DNA of 63,808 nucleotides, the filler included, from Hausera hauseri (lineage: Eukaryota), in NCBI GenBank assembly GCA_046269625.1. It is 10 parts of 10 records of this genome, joined end to end, with 100 filler letters (N's around TTAATTAATTAA, not from the genome) between each part and the next. Parts side by side here need not be neighbours in the genome. Positions count along the whole stretch, not along the records: positions 7,454 to 15,346 come from JBJURY010889845.1; 9 more parts are not named here. The stretch is one strand, 5' to 3'. Shown piece by piece: positions 6,333 through 59,330 of this stretch. Each line of letters starts with the position of its first letter. Position 1 is the stretch's first letter. The notes beneath the pieces were generated by a model, which saw nothing but the letters and a program-made list of their open reading frames with translations, ran no database searches and had not been told where the DNA came from. The translations under genes were made by a program, and so were the position numbers.

Positions 6333-6911
6333 GTGATACACAGGATGTTTCAGTACAAACAGAAGCCCGAAGGAGAGGGAGACCAAAAAGGAACAAAAAT
6401 AAGCGTCATTCGAAACATAAAGGATCGAAACGAAGAAATTGTACGGCGACTGCTATTAGCAGGAACGGATATAATGCCAGAATCTATAGATATAGATTCG
6501 TTATTAAGAACGTTACTAGCCAAATTACATACGTCATTTGCATCGTTTGATATGCAAGTGGTAATTACTGACGAATTGTTTCAGACGTTACGTAACGATA
6601 TGCTAAAAATTAGCAGGCAGTTTTATGAAAATATTGGTGAGGAAAAAATTACTGAACTGCATGAGCAAGATATATTAGAAAATGTGTTCGCGACAGAAAT
6701 CACGCGAGAAAAAGTACGAACAGCTATAGCTTATCTGTTATATAAAGTGATTGTGATCAATTACCAGACCCAAAATTTAGAAGAAATTGAGCGAAATATT
6801 AAAGCAGCGGTTAAAGTTTTAAAAGACTCGTTTGAAAATTGGGTCCAGTGTAGAGGCGGGTGGTTCGCAAGTCTTACGAAAAATGTAAGAGTAAAAGGGT
6901 ATGGAGGATAA
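6333..6911 (+). CDS. Bcl-2 family-like helical domain carried by the retroelement
   Basis: BH2-like FENWVQCRGGW; BH1-like VFATEITREKV (compare BOK FSAGITWGKV) at the expected ~50-aa spacing; BH3-like QTLRNDMLKISRQF; BH4-like IDSLLRTLLAKL. Preceded by the AT-hook-like RRGRPKR in the overlapping frame. Confidence 0.72.
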   Translation: MIHRMFQYKQKPEGEGDQKGTKISVIRNIKDRNEEIVRRLLLAGTDIMPESIDIDSLLRTLLAKLHTSFASFDMQVVITDELFQTLRNDMLKISRQFYENIGEEKITELHEQDILENVFATEITREKVRTAIAYLLYKVIVINYQTQNLEEIERNIKAAVKVLKDSFENWVQCRGGWFASLTKNVRVKGYGG

Positions 6912-6965
6912 ACAGGGATATCAACCGTAGCACAATCAAACCTACACACGTCAAGACAAGGCATA

Positions 6966-8800
6966 ATGGGAATGACGATGATGGGGATCTTCCAGATAAT
7001 CTTAATAACATCCTTGCTGATGCCGAAGGCAATGGGAATAGTAGCATACGATTGCTCAAAACCTAAGGAAGGACAGACGTATTCCTTAGTTGATCTAGAA
7101 AAATGTCCTGAAACTGATTCAGAACAACTAACGACAACCAGCGGTCATAGATATTGGATTTATCAGGAGTCTGAATTTATAAAATCCAAAATCAGTGAAT
7201 GTTATGTGAAGAAATTTTTCTTTCTGTTCAATTGTGCGTATTATTCCCGAAACTCTGCAATAATTGAACCAACAACATCATTTCAGCCGATAATAATATC
7301 GCGCGCCGAATGTCAAGATGCTTTTAAAATCGGAGTTATAACGATACAGATATNNNNNNNNNNNNNNNNNNNNNNNNNNNNNNNNNNNNNNNNNNNNTTA
7401 ATTAATTAANNNNNNNNNNNNNNNNNNNNNNNNNNNNNNNNNNNNNNNNNNNNTGATTATCGATCCTGGGGGGGGGGTGGCCCAGTGCGCTCCTTTCCCC
7501 CTACTAACGTGATAGTTGTAGATTTCTATAAAACAGCGATGCGATTACAAAAGTAATGTTTCACAGTGTTACTAAACTGTATGTCGAGAATAAAAATGCC
7601 ACTTACAAGATGAAATGTATGCTTTTAGAAGTTCTGTTATAATATGGGAACCTCCTTCTGGAAGAAACTGTAATTTTATCAAAATTAAAGAACTGAAATT
7701 CAATGAAGCCACCGGGAAGCGCGAAGACCTGGCCGAGTATTCTACACCAATGATGCTGATTTCTAATACCTATGGTTTGAAATTTATTAAAAAGGAAATA
7801 ATTTCACTTTACGCGGTTGTGCTGTTTGCAACTAGTTATGAAGCATTTTTCGTCGCAGAAATGGAAATACGTGCACGGACTTATCAACTTGAAATACAGG
7901 ATATTAGTATTGAAGATTACTTGAAAAATCGAGACGACAATTTTACTGCAAAAGACAAGTTGGAATAGCCGAACTATACATAAAATGATAACAAACAATT
8001 GTATGCTAGACATGGAAATTATGAGAACAAAACTAGCTCTCATTTATGCTAATCCTGAGTTTGTATCACCAACAATTCCTATGATAGGAGGAATTTTCGA
8101 GTGAGTCACCGGTGAGGTTTTATTGACCTACGAATGTGAAAAAAGGATGTATCGATTAATGTCGAAGAAAAACGGTGTATACAAGAACTCCCGGTTATAT
8201 ACCAAAGCATTCCCCGGTTAGCCATTCCACTTACTACAGTTTTCTTAGATAACGCGACTTAGCCAACAATCCTTAAAGATTGTAAGGCAAGCTTAGGGGA
8301 ACCCATGTTTAGACGTAGCGAAACGGATTGGGTAAGTTTGCCAAACGGAGGTATTACTGACGCTCCAATTAAGTTAACGGGAACTAATCTCGTGAAACGA
8401 ATCAGGGATGATAAATTCCAGGACACCTCATTAAAAGGAATTTATATACCAAAGGAAATCAAAGCTTTTAAACAATTTCTCTCTTTTCGCAACAACAAAC
8501 GCAGGCACTGAATCGAAAGGTCGCCTCAGTACTAGACGATACTCGATATCAAGCTAAATGGGAATCCTTGCTCGGAGTAAACCATTACCAACCAGTAACC
8601 ACGGAAATATTGAACAAAATTTAGGAAGATTTTTAATCTTTGGACAAGCCGCATCTGGATTTCTAGCGATGTATTTTATGACACAACTAATTAAAACGGT
8701 CATCCAAGCAGTAATAAACGGGTATGAAATATTTATATTGACGAGGTTCCCGTGTAAAATATTGACCGCGATCATCACACCGTTTGGAAATCAGACGTAG
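6966..8800 (+). pseudogene. env: Envelope glycoprotein, chuvirus/Anakin-type (gB-related), disrupted
   Basis: Signal peptide then AYDC..YSLVDLEKC..YQ..EC..C..C-x5-G, matching the chuvirus-G N-terminal cysteine pattern. Continues after the gap (IIWEPP, CMLDMEIMRTKLAL, CIQELPVIY) to the hydrophobic C-terminus GQAASGFLAMYF..CKILTAIITPFG. Confidence 0.8.
7354..7453. other. Artificial contig linker (N44-TTAATTAATTAA-N44); also at 15347, 21221, 26029, 30743, 36237, 43233, 55492 and 59737
   Basis: Identical 100-bp spacers containing stops in all six frames. Confidence 0.98.
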
Positions 8801-9118
8801 AACGTCATTTCGGCTACCACAATCGCAAAAGGAAAGGGAGACCTATGCTTTTGTACAAGCAGAAGTTCTCTAAACCTAAACCACGATGGAATAATTCGGA
8901 TGATGACAAGCCTAAGGAAGGAGAAGACCCTTTTAAAACAGATGGACATAAGACATACTCCATAGTTAAGGCACCATTGCTCATGTTACCCCCTCCGCTC
9001 CAATCTATGAACACTGCGACAAACGATCGATGAGTGCATATCAGACAGAAATTTATGAAAGAACAATAGGGTTGGAAGACCCTTATGAAGGGACAAACGG
9101 TATGGAATTTTACGGAAA

Positions 9119-12100
9119 ATGTGCTACCGACAGCATATGGACTATCCTAGAATTTTGCACTCTCCACGAAAACCTGGAAATATAGACACTAGACCACCTG
9201 TCTGGGGAAATCAAAGATTACGGACCTTCCAGAATGTAGCACCGCTTACTAACAACCGAGAGCCATTAATTAATACTCATGAAATGGAAGAGTCGAACAT
9301 CGAAAACAATGAATTATATCCAAATGAGGAACTAAGACAACTAACAGAAAACATAGTATCCTCCCCAGAAATCAGGATAAAGGGTCACAAGATATCGGCA
9401 ACGAAGCGCCCAAAAGTTGCATCAAATTGTTTTGGAACAGTAATAGAAGGGAGACCCTTCTCCATAATTACTATTGAAGATTGGGAAGTTTATGCCCTAA
9501 TGGACATAGATTCAGAGATGTCATACATCAAAAATGACTCAATTCCTCAAATGTTAAGGGGACAGTTATATATACCATCTACGAGGGACCCCGGAAGCAC
9601 AGGAGCTTTCGGCAAAATGTCGAAACCGATGTTCAAATGGAACCCAGAAGTTCAAATAGTTGGACTGTTTTTCCGTCACGCATTTGCAGTTATAAAACAA
9701 TTAAATGACCATGTACTTTTAGGCTACGACTTACTGAAGTGACTACCAAATGTAGCAATCGACTTCCAAACAGGAGGACTGAGAGAGATTAGGCCAAAAA
9801 GGGATAAAACCGCTAAAGATAGAAAATTTGGGAAAGTATAGATCCCAGTAGAGGAAAATATTCCACCATGAACAGGGATAATAATTTACTCTCAAGTTTA
9901 CCAAGATTATGAACAACCAGTATACTTTGAACCAAAGGAAACATTAGATCCGAATATAATATTCAGTAATATATTGACAAGAGTACACTCGGGTCGTGTG
10001 CCAATCAGAATAGTGAATAATGCACCGACTTCAGTAAAGCTTCATGCTTACACTACCTTAGGGAATACCTATGGAGTGTCGTCCATAACCGTTGAAGAAA
10101 AACCTTATAAATATGCCGAATTTCCGCCACATGTTGAAACTAAGCATTCACCTAAATCTTACTGCTGATTTTCTAAATTATTGTGTTGCTATAAATCAAT
10201 TATTGCTAAAGACGACGAAGATATCTGTAGAGCAAAAGCTTTAAAATTGACTATCCCGATTAGGAAAAAGTCCGAGTCAAATGAGGAGATAGATCTTGAA
10301 GATCAAAAGATGCCGAAATGGTGTCCTCTGCCACATTCATTAAGACCCGAGGTAACAAAAGAAGTCGAACGGATGCTTAAAGCCAATATAATTCTGCCTA
10401 GCTATAAATCGTGGTACTCACCAATTCTTATGGCTAAAAAGAAAGGCACTACAAAACATCGATTTTTATTGATTACAGGGCACTGAATATCCTTATGATG
10501 AATGATTCTTTTCCGTTACCATCAGTAAAAGATGCTTTGGGTAGGCTTTAAGGAGCAAAATGGTTTACTACTCTGGACTTACAATCTGGATATTGGTAAG
10601 TGGAAATTGAGGGTGAAGACTTCTATAAAACCACGTTTAAAACGCACGACGGTGTCCATGAATTTAATGTCATGCTGTTTGGTATTACCACCGGACCAGC
10701 TATTTTTACGAGAGTGATGAATAAAATGTTAATGGGTCAAGACCACTCTTTTGCATACTTAGATGATGTAATGATAGCGTTGAAGACAGAAGAGGAACAT
10801 TTAAAAGGTAATGAGCACACGTTGATGAAATTAGAACAATTAGGATTAAAGTTGAACCCAAAGAAATGTAAATGGGCTCGGAATGCAGTATCCTACCTTG
10901 GACACAAAGTTGGAGAAGGAGGATAGAAATCAGATAAATCATTACTGAATATGATATCTGATTGCATGGAGCCACAAAATCAGAAAGAGTTAAGACACTG
11001 TCTAGGTTTATGTGGATATTACGCCACCTATGTGCCGGTAATTCGAAAATAAATGCACCTTTATATCGTCTACTTAAGAATTAAATGGAAATGGACAGAT
11101 GTCGAACAAAAATCTTTCGACGAAATGAAGAAAATTTTAACAAGAGAACCAGTCTTAAGATACCCATATTTCAATTTACCTTTCATAATTAAGACAGATG
11201 TCAGTAAAGAAGGTATTGGATACAAATTAGCTCAGAAACGAGAGAATGAAGAGTTGGAACAGCCAATCGCTTATGGGGGACGATTCCTAAAAAAAGGCCG
11301 ACAAAAATTATTCCGTTACTGAATTAGAAACCTTAGCCGTTAAAGTAGCACACTGATGTTTTAACGTTTACGTATACGGACAAAAAATCATAATTGTTAC
11401 TGATCATAAAGCCGTCACAACCCTGAAAGTGCTGGAAAACGATCCCACCTGCAGGCGTAACAGATATATTGAAAAAATTTCAAGATATAATATTGAATTT
11501 TAGTATAAGCCTGGCAACAAGCACCTTGACGCTAATGCACTATCAAGACTACAAACTAAGACAAGTGCAATTACGATAATAAAGAAAGCTCAGCTAGAAG
11601 AATTAATAGACCATCGACACGTTCTGACAATGGACAAAGCAATAAAAATCTCAACCGAACAGAAGAGCGATAAAGTTATCCAGCAGATTATAGAATTTGC
11701 TAGAAATGATACAGTACCAAAAGGACGACAGCTTAGGAAACATCTGCACAGGCATGGACACAATTATTGTGTTTTGAACGAGAAGGGTCAGGAGGTTATT
11801 TTGTATTATAAACAAAAAGAAAGAAAATTAACAGTCATCCCAAAGGATTTGCGCATCGACGTTTTAATGACGGAACACGATTCATACTTAGCAGGACAAG
11901 TAAGAAGACATTAGAAAGAATATTGAATAAATACTTTTGGCCCAGTATCTATATTGACATAAAGAATTGGGTAAGTGCTTGCGAAGTATGTGCAACTAAA
12001 CAGAAAAAGACGAAGAACTACACGGCAGAGCTAAAAACAATTGCCGTACCAGACAGACCTATGCAAGTCATGTCGAAGGACATTGCAGGACCATTACCTA

Positions 12101-12840
12101 CGGCCCGAAAAAACAATAAATATATATTGACTTGTATTGATCGACTGACTCACTTTGTCGAATTGGTGGCGATGGGCGACCAGAGGGCAGAAACTTTGGC
12201 CGAAGCTGTAGTAAGAAGAACAATTTGTCGATATTGGCTCCCAAATTAAATACTGACAGATCGAGGAAGAAATTTTACTAGCGAACGGTTTGAGAAAATT
12301 GCTAAAATATTCGAGATAGAGAAGTTAACTACGACCGCATACCATCCTAAGTGTAATAGAATGGTTGAACGAATGAATGCAACAGTCTTCATTCTTAAAC
12401 CATTCTTCATGATGTATGGACGTGCGGCTGTGTTACCCACAGATTTAGGGATGATACCATACACGCTCAATACCGAAGATTTAGAACAGAATTTTGCAGA
12501 AGTGCTCCAGACGCTATTACAAAAATGTCGGGAAATTGCTAAAGAATTGTCTCAAGAATATAAGGAGCAGTTTAAAAGACAATATGATAAGAAAGCAAAA
12601 TGACACGACTTAGAACAAGGGAATTGGGTTTATGTACATTACTAAGTAGCTAAGAAAGGTACGACGTTAAAACTGACTAATACAGGAAGAAGACCGTACG
12701 AAGTTACTAAAGCTACGCCAACTACGGCATATGTCAACAAGAATGGAATAGAAGAGGTCGTATCAGTGCAGAGAGTCGTTCAAACAGATATACGATTAAA
12801 CAAACATTACAATTTACGACCACGCGAGACAAATTTCATC
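9119..12840 (+). pseudogene. pol: Disrupted pol of B1: PR (~9440-9740), dUTPase-like segment (~9830-10090), RT (~10300-10930), RNase H (~11160-11550), IN (~11870-12800)
   Basis: ORFs 9119-9742, 9974-10168, 10181-10486, 10600-10926, 11053-11322, 11630-11914, 11923-12249 and 12361-12603, with canonical motifs in gypsy order. Confidence 0.92.
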
Positions 12841-12849
12841 AATAATTGC

Positions 12850-14230
12850 TAGGCCGATCTCATATGTTCAGATAGTTTTAGCACTGTCGTTAATCGCTTC
12901 GTATATCCGAAAAGCACAAATTCAATGGTGTAACGATAAAACTGAGCTAGGAGATGTATATATAATTTGAAAGAGTGGATTGAAGTTGAAACCCATTATA
13001 ACGGAAGTTAAACCAACGACCGAAGAGATCCAAAAACGCGAAGACACTCTTCTGTTACAATCAATGAAGTCTAACTATTTTTCACCTGATTCTGTGTGTG
13101 TTAAATTTAAAAATTGGTGACCGCATCATAACTTTGGAAAATTTAAAGTTGTCCTATGCGACATAACAAAAGAGAAGCGAAAAACTGTGATTTTGAATCC
13201 GGAGATTATACACAGTGCTGCGACGTAGATTATGGACACATCTACATTCTTACTTATTGGTTATACTTACCAGACTTATCGGAAGTCTATATCGAAGTAA
13301 ACCAACAACTTAAGTTAGTTATCCCCAATTGGGCCAGAAGATTCAAGGTGACACTCAACGAAATGCTACAATCCACTGATCCAAATATAAGGCTATTAGA
13401 TGAAAATATTAAAGGAATCTCAGTAGATGAGGAAAAACAATGCATCCAAGTAGACGCTCAAACAGGATTAACTCTTAGTTAAGAAATTAGTATTGTTTTC
13501 GAAGCAGTAAACGGGAAAATCCCGAAAATAGAGTACTGCTCCGTTCATGCCGGCACGCAACATCCATGTTGTAAGCTGCCAGTAAACCGAGAATTCAAAA
13601 TAAAATTTGACTCATGTCAAGTACGACCAAATAAACTGAGCAAACACTTGCGAACTTTTTTACCACATGTCTTAATATGGAAGATTCCAATAAAGACGAC
13701 AAACAAGAAACCGACCACTCGAGTTAGTGACGTTAACAAAACCGTTACATCGAACAGCATGTCTAAAAAAGAATTAGAAAGTATACCTATCAAATATTCG
13801 ACACATCGATTTAAAATTGTTCTTTGTGGAAGAAAAACTAAATTACGATATACATATAAGCTGCCGAACAACGTATAATAATCAAATTGTAATATTACTT
13901 AAAAACACTTACCAGACAGAATGAGATTCGTTAAAACAACAATCGGATTATATAATACAAATTATGTAGAAGATAAAAAAAACCAAACAACCACATTGCG
14001 TATCCTAGACGGAATTCTTGTGGAATCGCATATATACGAAAAGGTAGACGATGAAATCACAACTCAAGTCACCAAACAAGCACAAATGGGATTAACCACT
14101 TTATCGACGGTATAAATTATCGTATTATCAAAGTTTGCTCTCATTATATTAATTGCGATGTTTTGATTAGTTACCAAAAATTGTCATTCTACGCTCCTTA
14201 AACTACAAAATGGGAAGTAAGTGAATTGGA
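12850..14230 (+). pseudogene. Second type-I membrane glycoprotein-like ORF after the integrase (B1)
   Basis: Signal-like RPISYVQIVLALSLIASY, Cys block CDFESGDYTQCCDVDYG, Thr-rich stalk and hydrophobic TM near 14110-14175. Homologous to 45230-46565 on -. Confidence 0.65.
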
Positions 14231-14255
14231 ACCCCAAGAATACCTCCATGATAAA

Positions 14256-14359
14256 ATAACCTGACAATTACAGATCGGGTAATTCTATCCTAAAACAAAG
14301 TGGTTTTGGTTTAAAACCATAATTTCTTTTAGGATTAGCCCTTACTTTTTATTTTTCAG
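14256..14359 (+). promoter_or_regulatory. Conserved hairpin plus splice-acceptor-like site (B1)
   Basis: ATAACCTGACAATTACAGATCGGGT is identical to the reverse complement of B2 ~45191-45215; followed by TTAGGATTAGCC, a pyrimidine tract and CAG. Confidence 0.6.
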
Positions 14360-14389
14360 ATTGGTAAGTACCAATAGGACGACCAGTAA

Positions 14390-15113
14390 TGACAACGAGA
14401 AACATAGTATCGACGATTTCTTAAAGAGATGTATCACTCTGCTTATTCTCAAATCGAAATCCATCGACCGCCAAATTAATAACGAGGTATATTAAAAAAC
14501 CCATGTGGAGTAAAATCGGACAAGTGAGATCCCTAATAATATGAAAGGGACAACGGAAGAAGATCGAGTCATATATCTTTATGCTACGAGGGACGATAGA
14601 GATGTCAGATCATATTCGCTGAACCAACTAGCCAGAATTGAACCAGTATATCATCATAATAGATATATTCACCTTGCAGACGGTGAGCTCTATTACCGGT
14701 TAAGGAATCAACCATGGAATGAAAGTAAAGGAAGACAATACAAATTTAGTACGTTCCATATGTGTAGTGGAGATTTCTATTTCAATAACTGTGAACTAGA
14801 ATTGCGAATAGCAGCATTTCCGGTAAAAATGATGATAGAAATCACCTATGAAGATGCGCCCTTTATCAAATTGCCCTCGGTGAAGTTCGAAAGCCAGCCA
14901 TCCGAAAGAGATCAAGATGATCACTTAGGCTCGTATCGACCTGTTCAAGATGGAAGAAATGTACGGGTTATTGCAGTAACCTACGGATAGAAGGACGATG
15001 GCAAATATATTTCTATCGATGTCTCCGTCAGAGACATAAATGGGATAGAAGTATATTCTAAACTAATTAGTCCTATTGAGAGGGTCAGGGAAACCTATGC
15101 TGAAGTTACCTGA
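14390..15113 (+). pseudogene. 3' accessory ORF of B1, unknown function
   Basis: ORF 14541-14990 plus flanking frames; N-terminal SIDDFLKR matches DIDDFLQH in the B2 3' ORF. Confidence 0.5.
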
Positions 15114-15118
15114 GTAGT

Positions 15119-15346
15119 GGGAAGGGAGCGCATGAAGCCAACCCCCCCCGGAAGGAAAATTTCTCTGATTGACCAATCAGAGAGCAGAAAGGGGAAGAAA
15201 AAAATGAGATTGACCAATCAGATAGGAGGAAGTGTGTGTGTGTTGTTGAAGAAAATTAACCAATAAGAACGCAGGATTCCCAGCTCTAAATTTTATATAG
15301 GAAAATGTGGCTCAGTCGGGGTTTCACTATTCCCACCCCTTTTGGC
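15119..15346 (+). promoter_or_regulatory. PPT and start of the 3' LTR of B1 (three CCAAT boxes and a TATA)
   Basis: GGGAAGGGAG at 15119-15128, TG at 15133, TTGACCAATCAG twice, AACCAATAAG, then TTTATATAG near 15292. Confidence 0.65.
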
Positions 15347-19170: not shown

Positions 19171-20799
19171 CTTATGAATTTAATCCGTCGAATTAGAAGA
19201 GAAGATTATCCTTAAATCAGAACCAATACACACTTTAGACTCATCTTTAAAGATGAAATCTACTCTACTCCATGACATAAACAGTAGCCGAGTAATTGAG
19301 GAGCCGTGCCTTTCAAATCACCGTATCATAAGACAGCGGCATAATTCCAATCAGAACGTTAATCCTTTGATGCCAACCAAAAATGATTCTGAAAGTGCTA
19401 CGACAAATACAGATTTTGTACAGACCTACCTCCAAAATCCCATCACGAAACCTAATCGTCACAACGTTTCGTAAGACAATAAAATAACAACGCAACAATT
19501 TAATTAAAAATCTCGCTCACTGAAGGAAATAAATCAGTTGACATATTTCTAAAATTCTTCACAACTGTATAAAAAGCCATTTTGTTTTATGATTTGAATT
19601 TTTCGATTTTAACTTGAATTTCACGCTAAGCTACTAACTTTTTGTAATTCGATTCTAATTCGATTTTTTGGCGATTTGAATTTAAATTTTACCTTTTCTT
19701 TTCGACAGTTTCGATTTAAAAAATTTACTAAATCTTCGATTTATCAAACAAATATTTCAACAGGAATTTCACAAGATATGAAAAGAAATTACAGTAATAA
19801 TTATGACTACAAGTTTCTGATCTGAGCGTTGTTTGCAGTGCTTTGAAAAGTTTTCCGTTTTTGTTGAGTGTTACATTAATTTAAAGGCATGTTTACAAAC
19901 TTATTATTCCCAACAGGCTAATTCGATTTTTGCCGAAAAATGTTGATCAGAATTATTTGATTAAACAGTATCAAGTCAATTTGGAATTTTTGACGAATTA
20001 AAAGGTTGTTTTGAATCTAATTGTTGGAAAAAATTAACTCATCTTCTGTTTACGTGTTCTGGTTCTGATACTCAGAGTACATTAATAATACGACTGTTTC
20101 TTAGAAAGGATGCTTGGAGAATAGCACGGGGTTGTAAAACTGACGCTATATTTGTAAAACAGGAAGAAATTAATATGTATGACCGTGCTCGGTTATCACT
20201 GTTTAAAAGACAGAATACTGAAATATTCGATGAGGGGCTTACAAAATTTAGTCGGGAATTTTGGCTGCAGTGGTTCTCGCAAGATCTATCGATCGATATC
20301 ATGTTATCCAACAAATGGTGTCAGAAAATTTACCCGTTTATTTTGTGCCACACGGACAAGGATTTTTTCACCAAGGTAACGTTCATATTTTTTCTATTGT
20401 AAATTTTAAACATTCCGACGATAATACTAACGAATATATATTCCATCTCTTTTTGCAAACTAGAGCTAATGATCTGCACGTTAATACCAACTAGTTTCTG
20501 GACATAACCGGCAACAAACCCCCGTTAACTCTAGCTAGATTCACATCTGCTTTCCCTCAAACAGGTTTACTGATGGCCGTTTGCGCACATAACAACACAC
20601 CATTTTGCTTGGCTGTTGGATCCGACGGTGACCATTTCACTATTAACACAACAAATAAATAATCAGAGTGGCAACCGTCAAAAACCAGTTTTTTCTATTT
20701 GGGGCTGTCAATGAAAGTGGAAAAGGTACTTACTACCAATAGATATATGAAACCCGGATGCAAATTCGTTTAGATAGGCGAATCACACAAATACACAGC

Positions 20800-21110
20800 A
20801 TACAAATTAGCAGAATTGATTGTGACTGTCGTCTATAACAATACGGGTAAATCGGTGTCGGGTATTTTGTTGTCGATGATTAGTGATAATTTCCATCAAA
20901 ATGGGTTCACGAATAATGATGGGAAATTTCAATTTAGTAATTTGTTATCAGGGAAATACTATTTACGAGCAATGATTGAAGGAATAGCAGAGGAAATGAC
21001 AATTCGGGCAATTCATGCATCATTTAGTGTTTATGGGAAAATTGCTTCATTGAGTAGTAAACCAGAAATTGCCGTGATCGTTGAGTCGCATCCATTGCGA
21101 ATGGATTATG
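20800..21110 (+). pseudogene. NOMO: Nodal modulator (NOMO) fragment
   Basis: SGILLSMISDNFHQNGFTNNDGKFQFSNLLSGKYYLRAM...SFSVYGKIASLSSKPE parallels NOMO1 GVLLSLSGG..DNGILTFSNLSPGQYYFKPM...YSCYGTVSSLNGEPE, with an internal deletion. Confidence 0.75.
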
Positions 21111-21320
21111 CAAACAATTTTCATTGGTCTGTAAAATGGACTTGTTGCGTAACGAATATGGAGTGACCGATGGAAAAACATTACATACAAGGAGCTCGGC
21201 TACCCCGAAGTTTGCGATCCNNNNNNNNNNNNNNNNNNNNNNNNNNNNNNNNNNNNNNNNNNNNTTAATTAATTAANNNNNNNNNNNNNNNNNNNNNNNN
21301 NNNNNNNNNNNNNNNNNNNN

Positions 21321-35201: not shown

Positions 35202-35717
35202 AGATGGGGTTTCCTTGTTGTGAGTATATAATTGAGAACAGAAGTTCTAAAATTAAATCAGAAACATTTTTAAATTTAAATTAAGATTCCAATTTGGAAT
35301 TGTTAAAAAATTTAATTAAAATTAATTAATTAAAATTTTAACGAAATATTGGAAATCTGATTTACATTTGGAAAATTTGTTTCAAAATAAATCATTTGGA
35401 TTATAATAAAAATTTTCTACTGGTGTTTACTTTTTAATGAGTAATCTCAAACGATCCAATTCTGATTCAGCAGACATACCAGAGGGAAGGTATTTTAAAA
35501 CCCTACCGCGGCTGGGCGATGACGTGGACGGTGTGGATGCGCACGCAGCCAACATGTATAATGAAGTAAAATGTTAAAGTTTTCATTTCGTAAACATTTT
35601 TTCATATTATTACTCATAAAAATCTGTACTCGTATATGTAATTTTCATAAAAACCTTCGATCACAATAAAGCCCCTTTTTATAAATTTATGATCATTTGT
35701 TATATTTTAAAGCATAC

Positions 35718-36003
35718 AGAAAGACTGACAGCTGTGAGAGGGAATGAGGGTTGAGGGTCTGGGTGAAAAAGGAAATGGAATTAAGAAGTAGAAATTGGTA
35801 GACACAAAACAGTCATGCGACTGTAGATTACAGCCCGGGAAATATACTCAATAATATGGTAATAACTATGTATGGCTCCAGACAGATACTTGAATTATTG
35901 GGGGGAATACTTCATCAATTCCATGGTTGTCTGGCCACTGTGCTGCACACCTGAAACTAATATAATATTGTATGTCAACTGTAACTGAAAAATAAAATTA
36001 AAA
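35718..36003 (+). mobile_element. Mammalian-type LINE-1 3' UTR (L1MA9-like)
   Basis: ATTAAGAAGTAGAAATTGGTAG..CAGTCATG..AATAATATGGTAATAACTATGTATGG..CACCTGAAACTAATATAATATTGTATGTCAACTGTAACTGAAAAATAAAA, recognised from memory as the eutherian L1 3' end. Confidence 0.75.
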
Positions 36004-43232: not shown

Positions 43233-43387
43233 NNNNNNNNNNNNNNNNNNNNNNNNNNNNNNNNNNNNNNNNNNNNTTAATTAATTAANNNNNNNNNNNN
43301 NNNNNNNNNNNNNNNNNNNNNNNNNNNNNNNNTATAAACTTTGTTGCGCGTTTCACATAGATTTTAATATGAATTTTAAAAACTTTA

Positions 43388-43903
43388 TGTGGTACTGGTC
43401 CCTTGTAAGGAGCGACGGAAACTATTAAGAATTTAAGTACAAAACTTTATTGACAATAAAAGAAAATATACCAATAAAATAATAGCTGTCAATCAACACA
43501 ATCAAATCGATTAGTAGGTCTGATTACGAGTCCTTTCGTCTGCTAGCAATTTCAAAATTACAAGAGTCTAATCACAGCTACAAATGTACACTGTACCATA
43601 GCATTTATATAGCTGCTTGTAGACAGGATTTGGTGGGAGAGATTTTCTTAAATTTTCTCTGGGTTTTTCTCAGTTTTACATTGGTTAATTCTAATTAACT
43701 GCAAGTAGTTAGTTATTTTCTTGATATTTGGTGTGCATTATTTTAGTAAATTTCTGTATTTTCCAGAGCAAGTCAATGAATTAATTGATTTCAACTTGGA
43801 ATTTGTTATTAATACACTTTCAATTTTCACTTTCAGTTTCGCTTTCGTTTCTATTTATTTACAATTTTATACATGGTAGTTCACAATCATTGTTTTTATA
43901 ACA
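43388..43903 (-). repeat. 3' LTR of B2 (~516 bp)
   Basis: On -, PPT AAGGAAGGAGAAA then TGTTAT; CCAAT near 43680, CTATATAAA near 43605, AATAAA at 43446-43451; ends ..ACCACA. Confidence 0.7.
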
Positions 43904-44043
43904 TTTCTCCTTCCTTAACGGCCCCCCATAAACGATTCATTCGTCCGCGTAAGCCCGCTTCCGAATCCGACTCATCTCGCGGAGATCGCGGGTCGAAGTG
44001 GTATGATGTAGTGGGTTTCTGGGGAAATATCTCAACTATCTTT

Positions 44044-45105
44044 TTACTCTCCATTAGAGAAATATCTTAGTCTGATAGCTTGCGCTCTACATACTGGGCA
44101 GGTCGTTTTCCCGCTTTTCAGGGTCCACGTTTCTAAGTAGTACCGACAGTATTTGTGGGTACAATCCTTATTGTCCAACACCACAAATCCTTGGTACAAA
44201 TTTGCATCGCAAACGGGACATTCTTTTTCGCCTCCGTCTATATCTGCACGGTTTTCGTCCACATCAATATGTTCAAATACGAGTCCCTTTATATCTTGGT
44301 ATAAATATCCATATAGTCGTTTCTGTTTATGATCTATAGAGCTTTTCTTGGTGTCGTCTGACACGGTAACCAATGTCCATTCAACGATTTCTTGTTTATC
44401 CAAGTCGGGTATTCCGGTTTTCTTGTATTGCCTCTTGAGTTGCACTCGAACTTGGGTATCCACTGAGATAGTTAGCCGATTAGTTCCGTTTTTCGACTGG
44501 AATATCGAGGCTAGGTATTTGCTAATCGTTATGTCTTCTCGGGCGCATGCGTTTCCGCTCACAATTCTTCTAGGAACGGTAGAGACAGAATATAGCTTCT
44601 TTGATCTTACCCCTTGCTATAATATTCAGCCATGACGAGTAATCGGGTATATTCTTTAACCGGACCGAATTCGGTTCCTATGATTGGGGCTGGTTCTTCC
44701 AAGTTTTTTCGAAGTACATTCACCTCTGTTTTGGGTGGTCCACATTTGAGGGTTTTCATTCCTGGTTCACTGGATCTCTCAGCTTCCTGTCTTAGTTTTT
44801 CCGTGGGTTTTGTTGCTTCTTCATTGATGCGTATAAGGCTGCTAGTTGACGGTTTTATCTCCAACCTGGAATTATATCTCTCGAAAGGTATGCTCGTGCA
44901 TCCTTTGGACTTCGCATCGCGTATAACCGGATTAGTCGATTGTCCTCTAGACTACATTTCAATCCATTCGGTATTCTGCTTTCTTGATCGATTTCTGTTT
45001 TTTTCGATTTTTGTTTTGGTTGTCAGTTTGAGAACTGTTACATGTTGTAGGAAGTCATCGATATCGTAACTGAGACTGTGCTGAGTTCTTCATCTTTTCG
45101 GCCAT
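44044..45105 (-). pseudogene. 3' accessory ORF of B2 ending in a RING finger
   Basis: CPVC..CTHKYCRYY..W..CPVCR (C3HC4 with one Cys replaced by Tyr) in ORF 44044-44562; upstream frames 44607-44864. Confidence 0.78.
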
Positions 45106-45112
45106 ACTTACT

Positions 45113-45215
45113 CTGCTAAAATAAAAATAAAGGTCAATCCTAAGACAGATCATCGTTTTAAAACAAAAAAATTTCTCTGATTATAGGATAACCCGATCTG
45201 TAATTGTCAGGTTAT
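45113..45215 (-). promoter_or_regulatory. Conserved hairpin plus splice-acceptor-like site (B2)
   Basis: Reverse complement reads ATAACCTGACAATTACAGATCGGGTTAT...TTAGGATTGACCTTTATTTTTATTTTAGCAG, followed by AGTAAGTATG. Confidence 0.6.
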
Positions 45216-45229
45216 GATATCATAAAGCC

Positions 45230-46565
45230 GGTCTTGGTACCCCTTTACCCGTTTACCTCTGTTGATTCTGACGTCCTTTATTATAGTTTTTGGAAATCAA
45301 GAAAATCGTCGCTGTTAAAATGACAAGAACGAAAATTGACAAACTAATTATAGCTATTATCGATAAGTTATTCGGTTCAATAAAATTTTCCGTAGTTATT
45401 GCATTTTGGGTACTAATACGTGAACTTCGTCGTTATGGTTTGTACTGTAAGAGTTTCATGTCGCTTACCATCTGCGGTTATTTGAATTATGTAATCATTT
45501 CGTGATTGTAAGGATTTGCATTCGATTTCCTGTTTATTTCTCTGCAAGATTACAATTTGGTTGGTGTGTAAGGTGCGACATTCGATTTTAATTTCATAAT
45601 CCACCGTTTCTTCAACATAAAATACAATTCTATTATGTCGTACTAAAAATTTGACAGGTATATTCTCCAATTCTTTCTCGGGTATTTTACTCGAAGTATA
45701 AGTATAAGTAGTTGGAGTTGTACTTGGAATGGTAGACGGTTTTCTCGTAGTTGTTGGAAGGGAAATCTTCCATATTCCGACTTTTGGGCGATATCCTCTC
45801 AAGTACTCGGTTCGTTTGGGTAGGTATTGTACAAATCAAATTCCAATTGGTATTCATGATCTAAGGGTATTCTGCAGCACGGATTTTGCTGTTCTCGCGC
45901 AATATAGCAATATTTCACAGGGGGGTCGATTTATGTATCGGTATGAATCGGATGGAAATTTGTCTGTCTCCCGGTAATTCTATTTTGGTTGTGTGTTTCG
46001 GATGCATTGGTTTTGAAGTTTTTAGAAATACCTATAATGTTGAAATCTAAGAGTTTTTAAATGGGTTGGTGTTTTGGACTATCTCGTCTGCCTTGTTTTG
46101 GCTCGCGCCGTTCCGTTTAGGCATTCTAATTTCGGATTTGGCAATTATATAGGCTTGGGCTCCAGGTAGATTTTAATAGAACATCTGAAATTTGTACTTA
46201 TGTTTGTCCAAAATCTATATCGCAACATTTCTGATAAGCTCCATATGGAAAATCACATGTCTTCATTGCAGAACTCATTTGATCTACAAATATTTGAAAT
46301 TTTACGTGGTTCTTCACAGATTCACTTGCCTTAAACCAGGCACAAGGTTTTATCCAATTCATATCGTAGACTCTAAGCGACTGTAAATTCTGTATATCTT
46401 TTCGTCTTGCTGCATGTTGTTCCTTTTTTGTCGGAATATATGACATAACTCCGTGGATATCTTCTACTAAATCCATTGTCCATTGGGTCTTTACCTTTGA
46501 TATATATGAAGCGATTAGCGATAGTGCAAGAATTATTTGTGCATATGATATCGGTCTGGTTACTA
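45230..46565 (-). pseudogene. Second type-I membrane glycoprotein-like ORF (B2) with an FN3-like domain
   Basis: RPISYAQIILALSLIASY; CDFPYGAYQKCCDIDFG; Thr-rich PTTTRKPSTIPSTTPTT; LQSRNDYIIQITADG..TVQT; TM IIAIISLSIFVLVILTATIFLI. Confidence 0.68.
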
Positions 46566-46599
46566 TCGATGACGTTTTCTTTTCATTCTTGGTTTGACT

Positions 46600-49500
46600 T
46601 GGATTTTCTTTATTTAAGCGCAGGTTATTGTTTATTTGGCCTTATTTCCGATTTGACTACTTTTTGTATTGATACGATCTCTTTTTGCCATTTTTATTAA
46701 TATAAACTGTAGTTGGTGTGGTTCTGATAACTTCGTAAGGTCTTCTGCCAGTTCGAGTGAGTTTCAGAGATGTGCCTTTCTTTGCGACTGGGTAATGTAC
46801 ATAAACCCTATTTCCATGCTCTAGATCATGTGGTTTAGCCTTCTTATCGTATTGTCTGTTAAATTGTTCTTTATATTTTTTAAACAATTCTTTGTCTATT
46901 TCTCAACACCTTTGTAGCTTTGTTTGTAATACTTCAACAAAATTTTGCTCTAGATCCTCCGTTTCCATTGTATATGGTATCATTCCTAAGTCCATGGGTA
47001 ATACAGCCTCTGCCATACATCATAAAAATGGAGTAAATTCTGTTGCAGGATACGGTATAGTGTTTATGGCGAATTGCGTGCCCTCTAAAAATTCATCCCA
47101 ATCCTTCTGGTCTTTCGCAACTACTGTTCGTAATATTCGTATAACTCTGCGTTTATTCGTTCAACCATTCCGTTACATTGCGGGTGGTAAGCTGTTGTGG
47201 TTAATCGTTCAATTTCAAATATTTTGGTAATTTTTTTGAATAGTTCGCTCGTAAAGTTTCTTCCTTGGTCTGTTAGAATTTGTTCGGGAGGCCCGTATCT
47301 ACAGATAATTCTCCTCACTACAGCTTCAGTCAGAGTCTCAACTTTTTGGTCCGCTAATGACATAAGTTCGACGAAATGAGTTAATCGGTCTATACATGTC
47401 AGAATGTATTTATTATTCTTATGAGTTGTAGGTAACGGTCCTACAATATCCATTGACACCATTTCCATTGGTCGGTCCGGCACGTTTATTGGTTTACGTT
47501 CGGGAATGTAGTTTTTCACTTTCCTCTGATTAGTTGCGAATACTTTGCAAGCACTTGCACAATTCTTCACATGGATGTATACGCTCGGCCAGTAATATTT
47601 ATTTAATACTCTTTCTAATATCGTTTTCCCTGTATCCGGCTAAGTACGAATCATGTTCGGCCATTAGTACTCCTGTGCGTAATCTTTTTGGTATGACTAC
47701 CAACTTCCGTCCTTTTTGCTCATAATACAGTACATTTTCATTACTTGTGTCTCCCGTTACGCAGTATTTATGACCATGTCTTTGTAAATGTTTCCGCAAT
47801 TGGTGGACGTTTGCTGTTATTTCATTTTCGAGAAACTCAATGATTTTTTGTATACCTTTGTCCTTCTTTTATTCAACAAAATTTTAATGGCTTTATCCAA
47901 TGTTAGAGCTCGTTGTCTGTCTACTAGTTGATCGAGCTGAGCTTTTCTTATTACAGTTATTGCGTTCGTTTTAGTTTTAAGCCTTGATAGCGCATCGGCA
48001 TCGGCATGTTTGCTTCCGGGCTTGTATTGAAATTCAATGTTATACCGTGAGATCTCTTTGATCCATCGCTTGAGCCTGTACTTTGGTTATTTGCTCTACC
48101 TTTCAAAGTTGTAACTGCTTTGTGATCCGTAACAATTATAATCTTCTGTCCGTAGACCTATAAGTTAAAGTTTCGTAGAACTTCTTTTACAGATAACGTT
48201 TCTTATTCCTTAACCAACTAATTCTTTTCAGCATTCTTTAGTGACCGTCCTTCATATGCGATTGGATGTTCTAGTTCTTCATCCTCTCGTTTTTGAGCTA
48301 ACTCATATCCAATGTCTTCTTTACTGGCATACGTTTTAACTATAAACGGAAGGTTAAAATCAGAATATGTGAAAAAGGGTTCTATAGTTAAAATTTTCTT
48401 CATTTTATCGAAAGCTTTTTGCCCGACGTCCGCCCATTTCCACTTAGTTCCTTTTTTAGGTAAGGCATACAAATGTGCATTTATTTTTGATTTATCTGGT
48501 ACATAAGTGGCGTAATAACCACGAAAACCTAACCAATGTCTCAACTCTTTTTGGTTCTGGGGTTCCATACAATTCGATATCTTATTTAATAATAATTTAC
48601 CTGGTTTCGGTCCTCCATCTCCAACTATATGCCCAAGATAAGATACATCGTTTTGGGCCCATTTACATTATTCGAGATTCAATTTCAATCCACCTTGCTC
48701 CACCCTCATGAGCGTGTCCTCAATATCTTTTAAATGTTCTTCTTCTGTCTTCAATGTAATCATTACGTTATCCAGATACGCGAACGCGTGTTTCAGTCCC
48801 ATTAGCATCTTGTTCATCATTCGAGTAAAAACGTCGGGTCCAATAGTTATCCCGAATGGCATTATAATAAATTCGTATACACCGTCGTGTGTTTTAAACG
48901 CAGTTTTGTAGCTGTCTTCTTATTCTATTTCTACTTGCCAATATCCGGATTGCAGATCGAGAGTGGTGAACCATTTAGCTCCGGAAAGTCTATCCAGGGC
49001 TTCTTTTACTGATGAAAATAGGAAAGAATCTTTCATCATAAATGTACTTAATGATCGATAATCGAAACTAAATTGGTGCTTTGTAGTACCTTTCTTCTTA
49101 ACCATGAGTAGAGGTGAGTACCAAGATCCATAGCTTGGTATAATGGTGTCGGCCTTTAACATACGTTCGACTTCTTTTGTTATCTCTAGCCTCAAAGAGT
49201 GCGTAGGGGATATCAGTTCGAAATTTTTTTTTCCTCTAAGTCTATTTTATCATTGGAGCCAGGCTTTTTCTTAAGTGGAATTGTTAGTCGCAAGGCTTTG
49301 ACTCTGCCAATGGCTTCTTCGTCTCTCGCGATGACTGAGCTGTAATGACAGAGTAATTCATAAAATCAACAGCATGCTTTCGGCAAAAATTTAGTTTCAA
49401 CGTGAGGTGGAAATTCGACACATTTGTAAGGTTTTTCTTCAACAGTTATTAACGATACTGTACACGTATGACCCAAAGTGGTATTGACATACAGTTTGAT

Positions 49501-50440
49501 CGGCGTTGGTGCGTCATTAGCTACTCTGATCATCACGTGGCCTGTCAATACTCTTGTTAATACGTTGCGAAGTACGATACTTGGGTTTAGCGATTCCTTT
49601 GGTTAAAAATAAACTGATTGGTCGTCATCTTGACGTATCTGAGCATATATTAACACCTCTGGTCTAGGCAGAATGTTCTTGTCCACTAGAATCGATACTT
49701 CTCCAAATTGTCTATCTTTGATGGTTTTAATTCCTTTTATCGGACCGAGCTCTATTAATTTCCCTGAATGAAAATCTATTGCTACATTAGGTAATTGCCT
49801 TAACAGATCGTATCTTAAAACTACATCGTATGTTAGCTATTCCATTACTGACAATTCGTGATAAAAATATTGTCTCATTATGCGAATTTCTGGCTTCCAT
49901 CGGAATTTGCTTTCCAATGATTGTCCAAAAGCTTCAATACTTCCTGGATCTGTTGTTGGACGTGGGTATAATTGTTTTAGTAGGAACTGCGGTATTGAGT
50001 CATGTTTTATCAGTGATATCTTGGATCCTGTGTCTATCAATGCGTAAACGTCCCTATCTTCTCACTGAATTTTCGCGAAGAATCTACCTTCGATTACTGT
50101 TCCATAGTAATTTGGCTCTATCTTTTAATGTTGAATCGTTGATACCTTATAACCGTTAATTCTAACTTTGGTGGTTGCAACTGGTTGGTCGATTAACTGT
50201 CTTAACTCTCCATTTTGATACAGTTTATTATTCATGCAATTGGCATTTTCCGTTTCCTGACTTACAACTGGCTGCTGTATTTCTTGGTTCCTGAAACTCT
50301 GTATCTCATGGTCTCTTGAGAATGTTGATCGTATTTCGTTTGGTCTGGGTATTCTGGGTGAATAAATTATTCCATGGTCGTCGACCGCTGAACGACGATA
50401 TGGGACAGATATTCTTTTCGTTTCGCGCACCTTAAGCAAT
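46600..50440 (-). pseudogene. pol: Disrupted pol of B2 (PR, dUTPase-like, RT, RNase H, IN)
   Basis: IDTGSKISLI, WFTTLDLQSGYWQV, AYLDNV, HPIAYEGRSL, HDSYLAG, SMDIVGPLP..ILTDQGRNF..NGMVERIN. Confidence 0.92.
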
Positions 50441-50810
50441 ATACCATAGTATTTTATTCCTTTATAGGTATCTTCCGTGATTGTAGATTGTTTCTCACAG
50501 TCTTCATATATAGGTTCAGTTTACGGTAATATTGGTAAAGGTGGTTTTATAACGGAATAGTTTTTGTGTCTATTTATCCTTGAGACGGCGTGTCCTCTCT
50601 TAGGCTTGTCATCATCAGAATTATCTCTTTGTGCCCTGTCATTTCTGAATTTTGGCTTGTAACTAAATACGTCTCTCCTTTTACATTTCCGGTCATGATA
50701 GCCAACATGTCGTTCAACATCCATTTTTATCTATTTTCTTCGTAAGCCTTTAAGAATTTACCAAAGGATGTGATAATAGCTATTAAAATTTTACATGAGA
50801 AGCCATTAAA

Positions 50811-52428
50811 ACAAACTCTGCTCGAAAAAATGAACTTAACATGACCACTAGTCTAGCGCGAAGGGCTACCAGGAAGTTACCCCGAGAAGTAAATTGGTCC
50901 AAACTATTCAAAAAACAAGAAAGACAGAACGGTCCGTCTTTAGTAACAGTAGATTCGAAGATATGTTACGGAATTTAACTGGGAATAATCACGGAAACGA
51001 GCCCAATTGGCTACTCAATTTCTTGACCGTGATGATGTTAATAAGACAAATGGGAGCAGTTATAATATATGACTGTGACAAATTCAGACTTGGCCAAAGA
51101 TATTCATTGATGGATTTGGAAATGTTCGAAGATGCGAGGCCACATAAATTAGAAACAAAAGAAAGAAGATATGTACTGTATCAGCAACGAAAGTTAGTTA
51201 CATTAGACGGGATAGAATGCATGTTACGACGATCTTGCAGTATTTTTCATTGTGGATTACTACACGAACACTCATCTATAATCAAGCCGATGACTCTACT
51301 AATTCTAATGAACTTAAAACGCCAGCATTGTAAGCAGACTAGAGAAACAGGCAGGTTGAAATTGGATGGTATGGAGCTAGAAATGCATCAAGGGAAAATA
51401 ATTAGAACATAAAAAATAGCAGCGTAAAGATTAGATATGCATACGGATCACTGTAACGGTGCAGAATACGATACTGGAAGGGGATTGGAGTCAAATATAG
51501 TGGTTCCGGATTTCTACGAAACTGAAATGCGCACACAATAGGTGAATGTTTTATAGCGCTACCAAGCTCTATACGGAAAACCAAAAGTGCCACATCCAAG
51601 AGGGCACCAATGTTTTTTAGAAGCTCAGTATTAATTTGGGAACCATCCGCCAAAACCGAGTGAAATTTTATTAAAATTAGAGAACCTAAGTTTAGCGAAA
51701 CAATATGAAAACGCTACGTAAGTATTACGCATGTAGATGTAGCTGAACGTCCCACACCCACCACATTCATTTTCTATACTCATGGATTAAAATTTGTGAA
51801 GAAGGATGTACTCACAAGGTGCAATGTAGTAGTGCATGCCACTAATTATAAAGCATTTTTTGTTGTTGAGACTAAGATAAATGTCAAAACGTTCAAGTTT
51901 GAGACTCAAGATATTCGAATTGAGGATTATTTAGAAAATAGAGACAACTATTTTTACTACTAAAAACAGGCCAGAATAGCTAAGTTATACCACAAAATGA
52001 TAACGAACGAATGCAAATTAGACTTAGAAATCATGAGAACCAAACTGGCTTTAATATATACAAATCCTGAGCTACCATCACCAATAATTGCGATGAAGAA
52101 AGGCGTTTTTAGTCTAGTGACCGCAGAAGTCCTACTGACTTATAAATGCGAGAAAAAAGACGTACCAATTAATGTGGAAGAGAAGAGATGCATACAAGAA
52201 ATTCCGGTAATATATCAGGACATATCGAGATTAGTAATGCCAATTACCCGAGTATTATTGGCAAACTCCACACAACCGACCATTCTAAATGATTTTAGAA
52301 CCAGTCTAGGAGAACCTATGTTTAGACGTAGTCAAACCGATTGGGTAAGCTATACCAAACGGTGGTATTATTACGCCGCCCACCAAGTTAACTGGACAGG
52401 CAGCATCAGGATTTCTAGCTATATATTT
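50811..52428 (+). pseudogene. env: env of B2, inverted relative to the rest of the element
   Basis: IIYDCDKF..YSLMDL..YQQ..EC..FHCG..H..C..TG; CKLDLEIMRTKLALIY..CIQEIPVIY; GQAASGFLAIY. The env C-terminal tail (GFSCKILIAIITSFG) remains on - at 50760-50810. Confidence 0.85.
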
Positions 52429-55045: not shown

Positions 55046-55273
55046 TTATATCTCGATAATTATACCCGTGTCCTTACGGATACCATAAATTGCTTCTAGA
55101 TTTTCATTCCTAATTACATTAGTTTTGTTAGGCTCAACAAACGAAACACTTCGTGGGTTTGGACAGGACCTTGCTACGTGCCCTTCTTGTCCACATGTAT
55201 AACAAATTAGGTTGCCATTTCTACCGACTCTTTGTTGACCGTCTTCATTTACTGGAGATTTTGATCTACTCAT
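55046..55273 (-). CDS. gag: Gag nucleocapsid region with a CCHC zinc knuckle
   Basis: CYTCGQEGHVARSC. Confidence 0.85.
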   Translation of the reverse strand: MSRSKSPVNEDGQQRVGRNGNLICYTCGQEGHVARSCPNPRSVSFVEPNKTNVIRNENLEAIYGIRKDTGIIIEI

Positions 55274-55491
55274 ATTTCTATTATAATTCTGATTCGATGG
55301 AACTTGTGTAGTGTCTCCATTCTGGTGTCTTCATTTACTGGAGATTTTGATCTACTCGAATTTCTGTTATAATTCTGATTCGACAGAACTTGTCTAATGT
55401 CTCCATTCTACTCGAATTTCTATTATAATTCTGATTCGATAGAACTTGTCTAATGTCTCCATTCTACTCGAATTTCTATTATAATTCTGAT
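55240..55491 (-). repeat. Tandem repeats (~56 and ~86 bp units) in B2 gag
   Basis: AATCAGAATTATAATAGAAATTCGAGTAG recurs four times on -, encoding NQNYNRNSSR-like repeats. Confidence 0.8.
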
Positions 55492-55949
55492 NNNNNNNNN
55501 NNNNNNNNNNNNNNNNNNNNNNNNNNNNNNNNNNNTTAATTAATTAANNNNNNNNNNNNNNNNNNNNNNNNNNNNNNNNNNNNNNNNNNNNGGTGAATCT
55601 TAATTAGCAAAAATATTTTGATATCTAGATAGTTAGGGGTGGTGGTAGGAGCATTGGTAGTAGTGTTAGCATGTACTTTATTGTTTTAGTACCCTTCCGT
55701 TAGCAGGATTTTCATCATCATCATTCTTTCGATGCTGTATTTAGAATAAGAGTGACAGGGCTGGGTATCCTCTCTCCTTGTGGGGCTCCATACCATACCA
55801 CAGTATAGTTTTCCTAGTGTCTACCTTTTTTCGGCCCACTTAGTGTTTGTCATCATCATGTTCCTTTGCAGAGGTCGTCATGTATAAGAAATACAGGCAA
55901 TTATTGAGAGGTCGGGGTATGACTTTTATCTAAGTTTTAAAGCACAAGA

Positions 55950-56470
55950 TGGGGGGGGGGGAGGTGAATGTCACACATTCGTCCAGAGTCGGGGATAGGC
56001 GTAGGAAGGGTCCGCGTGGGCTAAGACAGAGGATGATGGCGGGAGAAGAGGGAGGCAGGTGACGTCAGGTGTAGGCTCTAGGGGGCGGAGCTAGTCGTCG
56101 CAGGCTAGTGCAGGCGGCGCGGAGTGCCGGCTGCGTGTACCCGGACAGAAGAGAGGAGTCCGGTGGTGCAGGGGCGGAGTCAGGTGACGTCAGGCGCAGG
56201 CGGCGCCGAGTGCCGCATGTGTGTGCTCGAAAGAGGGGGTGAAGTCAGGCATAGGAAGCCGCCGCGTGGACAAAGCCAGGCGGAACAGGCGGAACAGGAA
56301 GCGGGGTCAGGTGATGTCAGAAGGTGAAGCCATAGGACAGACTTAGCTGGAATCAAGATGGCGGATGAACTGTCCGCATCAACAAAGGCAGGCAAGGCGG
56401 GCGTAACAGGAAGCGGCGTCATGTGATAGTGACGTCAGAGGACAGAAATAGGTGGAAGCAAAACGGTGAC
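55950..56470 (+). promoter_or_regulatory. GC-rich cluster of CRE, GC-box, ETS and YY1-type motifs
   Basis: TGACGTCA three times, GGGGCGGAG twice, CAGGAAGCGG twice, AAGATGGCGG, all in an otherwise AT-rich contig. Confidence 0.55.
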
Positions 56471-56539
56471 TGAATCTTGTAACGTTTATCATAATATTTT
56501 ATTATTATAACAGTGGTAAGTTGATTTTATTCATATAAG

Positions 56540-59320: not shown

Positions 59321-59330
59321 AAGCCTTACC

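Follow-up and report, generated by a model that had tools for sequence, protein, structure and literature searches.

The window analysed here is a stretch of 63,808 nucleotides from the Hausera hauseri assembly GCA_046269625.1 and consists of ten repeat records separated by N spacers. Two of these records each hold a decayed Ty3/gypsy copy, copy A on the plus strand and copy B on the minus strand, with ~70% identity between them over pol. In both copies Pfam places RVP, RVT_1, Integrase_H2C2 and rve in the PR-RT-RH-IN order of Ty3/gypsy elements, and a further gene, ORF X, adjoins the 3' end of integrase and is collinear in A and B. The features of the two copies are given below with their window coordinates and strand.

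7447-15346 (+): copy A, a decayed Ty3/gypsy copy (record 2)
7521..8800 (+): gB-type (class III) fusogen of copy A, 5'-truncated, upstream of pol (PF24664, E 1e-7)
9400..12853 (+): protease-RT-RNase H-integrase of copy A, decayed (RVT_1 E 2e-28, rve E 4e-14)
12830..14264 (+): ORF X of copy A, a decayed gene of ~470 codons for a predicted type I membrane protein, collinear with copy B and with the protein P0001
12851..12922 (+): signal-peptide-like segment of ORF X (hydropathy, n/h/c layout)
13040..13330 (+): domain 1, with four Cys (C..C-x9-CC); its homology to domain 2 predicts a beta-sandwich
13369..13695 (+): domain 2, with the Cys arrangement of domain 1 (C..C-x9-CC) and a low-confidence FN3/Ig-like model (pLDDT 52)
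13690..13770 (+): Ser/Thr-rich linker between domains 2 and 3 (37% S+T in A)
13771..14005 (+): domain 3, FN3-like seven-strand sandwich, modelled on its stop-free copy B counterpart (45416-45700)
14101..14172 (+): predicted transmembrane helix, with two stops in A (hydropathy)
14173..14264 (+): predicted short cytoplasmic tail ending [Y/H]DxIT-stop, common to copy B and P0001
14248..14370 (+): nucleotide block shared with 45223-45105 (78%), overlapping the ORF X stop
14349..15110 (+): accessory ORF Y, with partial homology to copy B 45080-44888 and without a Pfam family
43333-55491 (-): copy B, a decayed Ty3/gypsy copy (record 8)
45207..46590 (-): ORF X of copy B, decayed, with several stops and frame breaks, collinear with copy A
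46620..50150 (-): protease-RT-RNase H-integrase of copy B, decayed (Pfam, alignment to copy A)
50852..52400 (+): gB-type fusogen of copy B, inverted, between the gag side and pol (PF24664, E 2e-10 and 2e-13)

Copies A and B belong to a gag-env(gB)-pol Ty3/gypsy retroelement and both are dead. A zinc knuckle lies upstream of env in copy B, gag is missing from copy A, and no terminal repeat pair was found in the record of either copy, both records being truncated and decayed. The fusogen matches PF24664 (Pfam Monjiviricetes_fusion) above cutoff in both copies, which are 64.5% identical to one another over 228 codons of this gene. Within copy B 50730-52400, gB has been inverted and ~400 bases deleted, while its membrane-proximal end remains on the sense strand, adjoining pro-pol. 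The pro-pol frame is -1 relative to the frame of the gB TM segment in both copies (8740-8830 in A; 50790-50690 in B), with a frame-keeping length difference of 33 bases between them at this junction; the offset may represent a programmed frameshift or a stop-start junction. In copy B ~900 codons with no Pfam match separate the gag zinc knuckle from env (52400-55200, minus strand); they include an AT-hook-like stretch, RPVGRPRK. Two gag-side pieces of copy B, from its truncated and frameshifted record, gave no Pfam match to BIR, MATH, ankyrin or BCL2.

Elsewhere in the window, record 6 contains at 35700-36000 (minus strand), within an element not assigned in other respects, a segment that seems to resemble the 3' end of a mammalian LINE-1, and record 9 (55592-59736) forms one long nested palindrome containing tandem repeats of 94-96 bases. 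Host-like pieces of an amiloride-sensitive sodium channel (60236-60790, minus strand, E 3e-9) and of a carboxypeptidase regulatory-like domain (20774-21166, plus strand, E 2e-6) each lie beside a gypsy fragment. The tail of record 1 (6333-7340, plus strand) carries a Bcl-2-like stretch (E 4e-4), then a signal-like segment and then the start of a gB-type fusogen (E 2e-12); this order matches the BCL2-env order described in the text on Burro elements (PMC6431247), and here it lies downstream of an unrelated gypsy pol.

ORF X of copy A is interrupted by seven in-frame stops and four frame breaks (near 13172, 13813, 13964 and 14223). Its best single-frame local protein score is 173, against a mean of 47 and a maximum of 63 in 100 codon shuffles, and none of the other eight records of the window holds a homologue. 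The earlier note had described a nearly identical signal-like peptide directly after integrase in both copies, and this is borne out: 16 of 18 residues are identical in the core (12851-12904 in A, 46560-46507 in B), where seven codon changes are synonymous and two non-synonymous. That the core is conserved while its synonymous sites vary indicates that the constraint acts on the protein, and such conservation, odd next to that of the domain stretches, suggests a second job, such as that of a processing site. Kyte-Doolittle hydropathy over 19-mers reaches 2.76 in A and 2.89 in B at the transmembrane segment, and the tail ends in HDKIT-stop in A, YDIIT-stop in B and YDRIT in P0001. As this tail motif is common to all three sequences, the end of ORF X was moved past one more frame break to 14264, in place of the end at 14230 given previously. 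The presence of a signal and a TM segment, which the earlier note had also proposed, is borne out by the hydropathy and charge of all three sequences, A, B and P0001, each of which has a predicted type I layout with an N-terminal signal and a single C-terminal TM followed by basic residues.

P0001 is an intact homologue, returned as the sole match by HMMER among 1.84 billion representatives (479 aa, E 8e-33, 35% identity); it is a single-member cluster from one 4939-base ENA contig. When P0001 was compared with the window by tblastn, it matched both copies end to end (E 4e-47 and 1e-64). It has Met residues at positions 1, 6 and 10, a hydrophobic core at 12-29, Cys residues at 87/117/127/128, 202/234/244/245 and 352/372, an S/T linker at 294-318 (48% S+T in the best 25-mer), and a TM segment at 429-453 followed by a tail of 27 residues with 7 K/R in the first 12. 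Its signal core is identical to those of the two copies at 16/18 and 17/18 residues (16/18 for A). Its domains are 35-48% identical to both copies, and over the domain stretches set against the signal core identity is 19-48%. Comparisons of ORF X thus draw on three sequences, A, B and P0001, and the link of P0001 to a gB element is an assumption. The N-glycosylation sequons, four in P0001, two in A and one in the read parts of B, share no positions. In word-indexed protein searches, none of 650 candidates for copy A reached E 0.01, none of 131 longer ones for a copy B piece reached E 0.1, and of 3335 for P0001 only P0001 itself matched. No relatives of ORF X were found in the scanned loci of viral contigs, metagenome contigs and prokaryote genomes; a gB locus from this loci scan (L001) proved spurious once its sequence was read. 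Contigs of one public run cover ORF X with several diverged versions, this run possibly being the source sample and so not independent; four of the contigs listed over 45442-45886 differ from the window by 38-48 letters each. In run X1 ORF X has less contig depth than pol, a measure that cannot rank genes.

The Cys block had been taken as a single element. It is present in both copies (13180-13236 in A, 46263-46207 in B), and it occurs twice, with a second block at 13522-13600 in A, marking an internal repeat: domains 1 and 2 of P0001 align with a score of 76 against a null of 27 +/- 5 (p 0.0005), and on the decayed fragments one of four domain 1-2 pairs is significant. Domain 3 has no detectable relation to domain 1 (p 0.3-0.7) and at most a weak one to domain 2 (p 0.02 local, 0.15 global). 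The Thr-rich stretch is likewise found in both copies; its position is that of a linker between domains 2 and 3 in the middle of the ectodomain and not that of a stalk beside the membrane.

Folded alone, domain 3 of copy B gives a seven-stranded model (pLDDT 59) for which the top eight Foldseek rows are FN3-type (TM 0.59, E 0.04), with no match at E 0.001. In VIA the best match to this model is fibronectin (Z 7.7, rmsd 4.0, 92 aligned), tied with the IL-20 receptor, and bacterial Ig-like folds follow at Z 7.0-7.2. The model of domain 2 has six strands (pLDDT 52) and no Foldseek match at E 0.001, and its best VIA match is a bacterial Ig-like DUF3244 domain (Z 6.5), with FN3 rows at Z 5.0-5.7. 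By phmmer the copy B piece has one match among PDB sequences, to an FN3 domain (E 0.67); searches of PDB sequences with domain 2, with P0001 and with a profile yielded no usable match, and Pfam fn3 has none in P0001 or the window pieces, the best family being Fn3_Dep-1_1st at E 0.12. An Atlas neighbour search (unconnected with Atlas virus) placed 10 of 10 family-bearing matches in one clan, all in FN3 families, at scores of 0.83-0.89, which are under the 0.9 lead line, with low recognition. The best BFVD row is herpesvirus glycoprotein C at E 0.033, a non-significant lead, with no Foldseek match at E 0.001. Fold, sequence and language-model searches thus agree on FN3/Ig-like domains, each under significance. 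ORF X likely contains Ig-like beta-sandwich folds, and it probably has three FN3-like domains; the claim of one FN3-like domain followed by a TM segment stands in both copies as to the predicted beta-sandwich and the predicted TM, and not as to the number.

To assess selection on ORF X, codon positions were counted in a nucleotide alignment of A and B with frames set from copy A. Third positions differ at 197/363 sites (54%) and first and second positions at 238/728 (33%; p 1e-11), and excluding the signal region leaves the contrast in place (158/288 versus 198/580, p 6e-9). The corresponding counts for integrase are 138/268 and 83/538. As the third-position rate equals that of integrase, ORF X is as old as pol in the split between A and B, and only its protein has changed faster. 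This is seen again in tblastx blocks, which are biased to conserved parts: pN is 0.29 in ORF X (214 codons), 0.14 in RT/RH (355), 0.16 in IN (347) and 0.20 in gB (228), while pS, which is near saturation, is 0.69-0.80 in all four alike. The resulting pN/pS, in which decay after insertion inflates pN, is 0.42 for ORF X (bootstrap 0.34-0.52) against 0.19 for RT/RH, 0.21 for IN and ~0.25 for gB. The substitution rates between the copies, proposed earlier as a check, thus point to purifying selection, and the claim that the ectodomain diverges faster than pol is upheld. We infer from these sequence comparisons that ORF X was present in the common ancestor of A and B and has been kept by purifying selection, with its protein changing at about twice the rate of pol.

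How ORF X is joined to integrase bears on its expression. Its frame is +1 relative to integrase in both copies, and no in-frame Met precedes the signal core in A or in B. The break at the junction differs between the two: the residues NLR near the integrase end of A recur in B in the ORF X frame, a recurrence that was chosen after the fact and has a chance of ~1% per 30 bases. It would fit independent decay of an in-frame integrase-ORF X fusion. Copy B has an out-of-frame ATG at 46586, in a stretch absent from A, and P0001 has a Met right at the start of its signal; together these would fit a separate ORF. An AG precedes the signal core in both copies, without a clear pyrimidine tract. We lean slightly towards expression of ORF X as its own ORF behind integrase; expression as the end of the pol polyprotein, with release at the signal-like segment, has somewhat less than an even chance.

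Downstream, the block shared between 14248-14370 and 45223-45105 ends in both copies in an acceptor-like T-run/AG with GTAAGT within a few bases, and is possibly a micro-exon. Summed contig depth over its copy B counterpart is far above that of its neighbours (76,862 in the bin 45097-45222), which hints at many more loci with this block, perhaps the start of an LTR. A RING-finger ORF (zf-RING_2, E 2e-5) lies at 44044-44616 (minus strand) in copy B, downstream of ORF X and ORF Y.

The gag-env-pol backbone of this element is known, and ORF X seems to be a new cargo gene on it. Flatworms, nematodes and bryozoans are known to harbour errantiviruses with gag-env-pol order and a gB-type env (Chary and Hayashi, eLife, PMC13524379). 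These resemble copies A and B in their Ty3/gypsy pol and in a gB-type env upstream of it; by eye, and not by computation, copy B gB resembles the Smed_errantivirus rows shown there. The main text of that paper annotates only GAG, POL and ENV, mentions no post-integrase FN3-TM gene and has no occurrence of 'fibronectin', although a gene like ORF X may lie unannotated in those elements. The planarian Burro/GYPSM1 elements share a mononegavirus-like env between gag and protease and a long gag-side insert, and their accessory modules occur as separate ORFs or as polyprotein subdomains; they differ in that env is in frame with pol, in contrast to the -1 offset in A and B, and the text describing them lists no FN3 or second surface protein (PMC6431247). 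Extra ORFs after pol are known in general (texts of PMC5408684 and PMC6431247). In rotifer LTR retrotransposons, ORF3 is a varied set of accessory ORFs that follow pol and in some cases contain TM segments and cysteines; at 210-230 aa, with no 'fibronectin' in the text and no upstream gB alongside, they are unlike ORF X (PMC5408684). In the open literature covered, mainly main texts, no gypsy element bearing gB was found to carry a gene for an FN3-like type I membrane protein.

The earlier note had also held that a two-glycoprotein entry system would be unusual for a retroelement. A second predicted membrane protein does stand beside the class III fusogen, given PF24664 in both copies and the intact homologue, whereas the claim of rarity is weakened by Atlas virus (Belpaoviridae), which encodes tandem Gn and Gc, with Gn described in the text as receptor-binding and more variable than Gc (PMC9094657). 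Atlas virus is alike in being a retroelement that encodes both a variable and a fusogenic envelope glycoprotein; it is unlike in that Gn-Gc come jointly from a phlebovirus-like virus, are class II and lie adjacent, whereas the fusogen and ORF X sit on either side of pol and seem to differ in origin, the one viral class III and the other host-like FN3. Alike in build is Drosophila Sas, which targets Gag-derived Arc capsids to cells and has a signal peptide, three FN3 domains, one TM and a short tail (37 aa) with a Tyr motif (text of bioRxiv 2022.09.06.506798). Sas differs as a host gene of 1693 aa with VWC domains and a YDNPSY motif, without shown sequence homology to ORF X; rows 23-24 of the Atlas neighbour search read 'epidermal cell surface receptor' (score 0.83, leads only). 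By analogy, Sas could serve as a working model of how a protein built like ORF X may steer Gag-type capsids to chosen cells.

Our preferred reading, held with a little less than even confidence, is that ORF X is a selected accessory gene and its product a predicted attachment or targeting partner of the gB-type fusogen. The tail of 27 residues after the TM in P0001 leaves no room for a signalling domain, and the predicted build is that of an adhesion or targeting protein without a signalling module. Such a gene would have originated from a host cell-surface receptor or adhesion gene, followed by duplication of its Cys-bearing domain. Its terminal YxxI motif, which is kept in B and P0001, has His for Tyr in A and is not the Sas motif, would sort the protein to the membrane where particles bud; the fast-changing ectodomain would bind a host surface protein, docking particles or producer cells on their targets, and docking would let the slower-changing gB fuse. 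Rhabdovirus G and baculovirus GP64 are class III fusogens that attach and fuse alone, and PF24664 is a mononegavirus-type single glycoprotein. A partner for gB is therefore not required, and the fast change of the ectodomain fits a decoy equally.

One such decoy, rather doubtful in our estimate, would be a signalling-dead receptor mimic on the expressing cell that soaks up a cytokine-like ligand or blocks a host receptor and so shields that cell or changes its fate. The Cys-bearing FN3-like domains and the lack of an intracellular domain agree with this, the weak fold matches include many cytokine-receptor rows (IL-10R1, CNTFR, gp130, IL-20R2, TSLPR), and row 8 of the Atlas neighbour search is IL-11 receptor alpha (0.85); but cytokine receptors dominate the FN3 entries of the PDB, so these rows, at identities of 3-19%, single out no family. 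Class I cytokine receptors are defined by four Cys with C-x-W, plus WSXWS. The C-x-W occurs in domain 1 of B and P0001 and is absent in A, and P0001 has no WSXWS and falls outside that class; nor does any host parent gene of ORF X appear among the HMMER and word-indexed protein-search matches. A Bcl-2-like stretch with a gB fragment lies in the same window, and related Burro elements carry host-manipulating BIR, BCL2 and MATH domains (text of PMC6431247), which is in keeping with a mimic. The terminal YxxI of B and P0001 and the fast ectodomain would also suit superinfection exclusion, in which the ORF X protein binds the gB receptor, internalises that receptor through its tail and shuts out related elements; receptor interference is normally the work of the envelope protein itself, and we consider this improbable.

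That ORF X is a transduced piece of a host gene carried as passive cargo, with no role for the element, would agree with both window copies being dead. It is very improbable: A and B have diverged under purifying selection, their synonymous divergence matches that of pol, and two deep lineages agree in the position and full layout of ORF X, to which an intact third sequence is added; the gene is intron-free. Least credible of all is a second fusogen or the remnant of an older env, to which the position of ORF X, the env site of gag-pol-env elements, might point: in a 19-mer scan P0001 rises above 1.5 at the TM alone and shows no hydrophobic internal segment, the read pieces of A and B have no RxK/RR furin site, and ORF X matches no env or fusion family and consists of predicted beta-sandwich repeats.

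A bolder form of the preferred reading, as an attachment partner of gB, is that a flatworm-type lineage has put together its means of entry from two sources. A class III fusogen of viral origin would lie before pol, and after integrase a host FN3 receptor, captured and duplicated, that picks the target cell and triggers gB, perhaps as a tail of the pol polyprotein; in herpesviruses this task falls to gD and gH/gL. We regard this as unlikely, though not remote. If ORF X instead acts as a decoy, a retrotransposon would here carry a viroceptor-like gene that modulates the host, as is otherwise associated with large DNA viruses. Herpesvirus gB needs gD and gH/gL, and the text of PMC13524379 states that the entry of gB-type errantiviruses is unknown, leaving open how it proceeds without herpes-like helpers; ORF X would be a concrete predicted candidate for such a helper, and brings with it an intact natural sequence in P0001.
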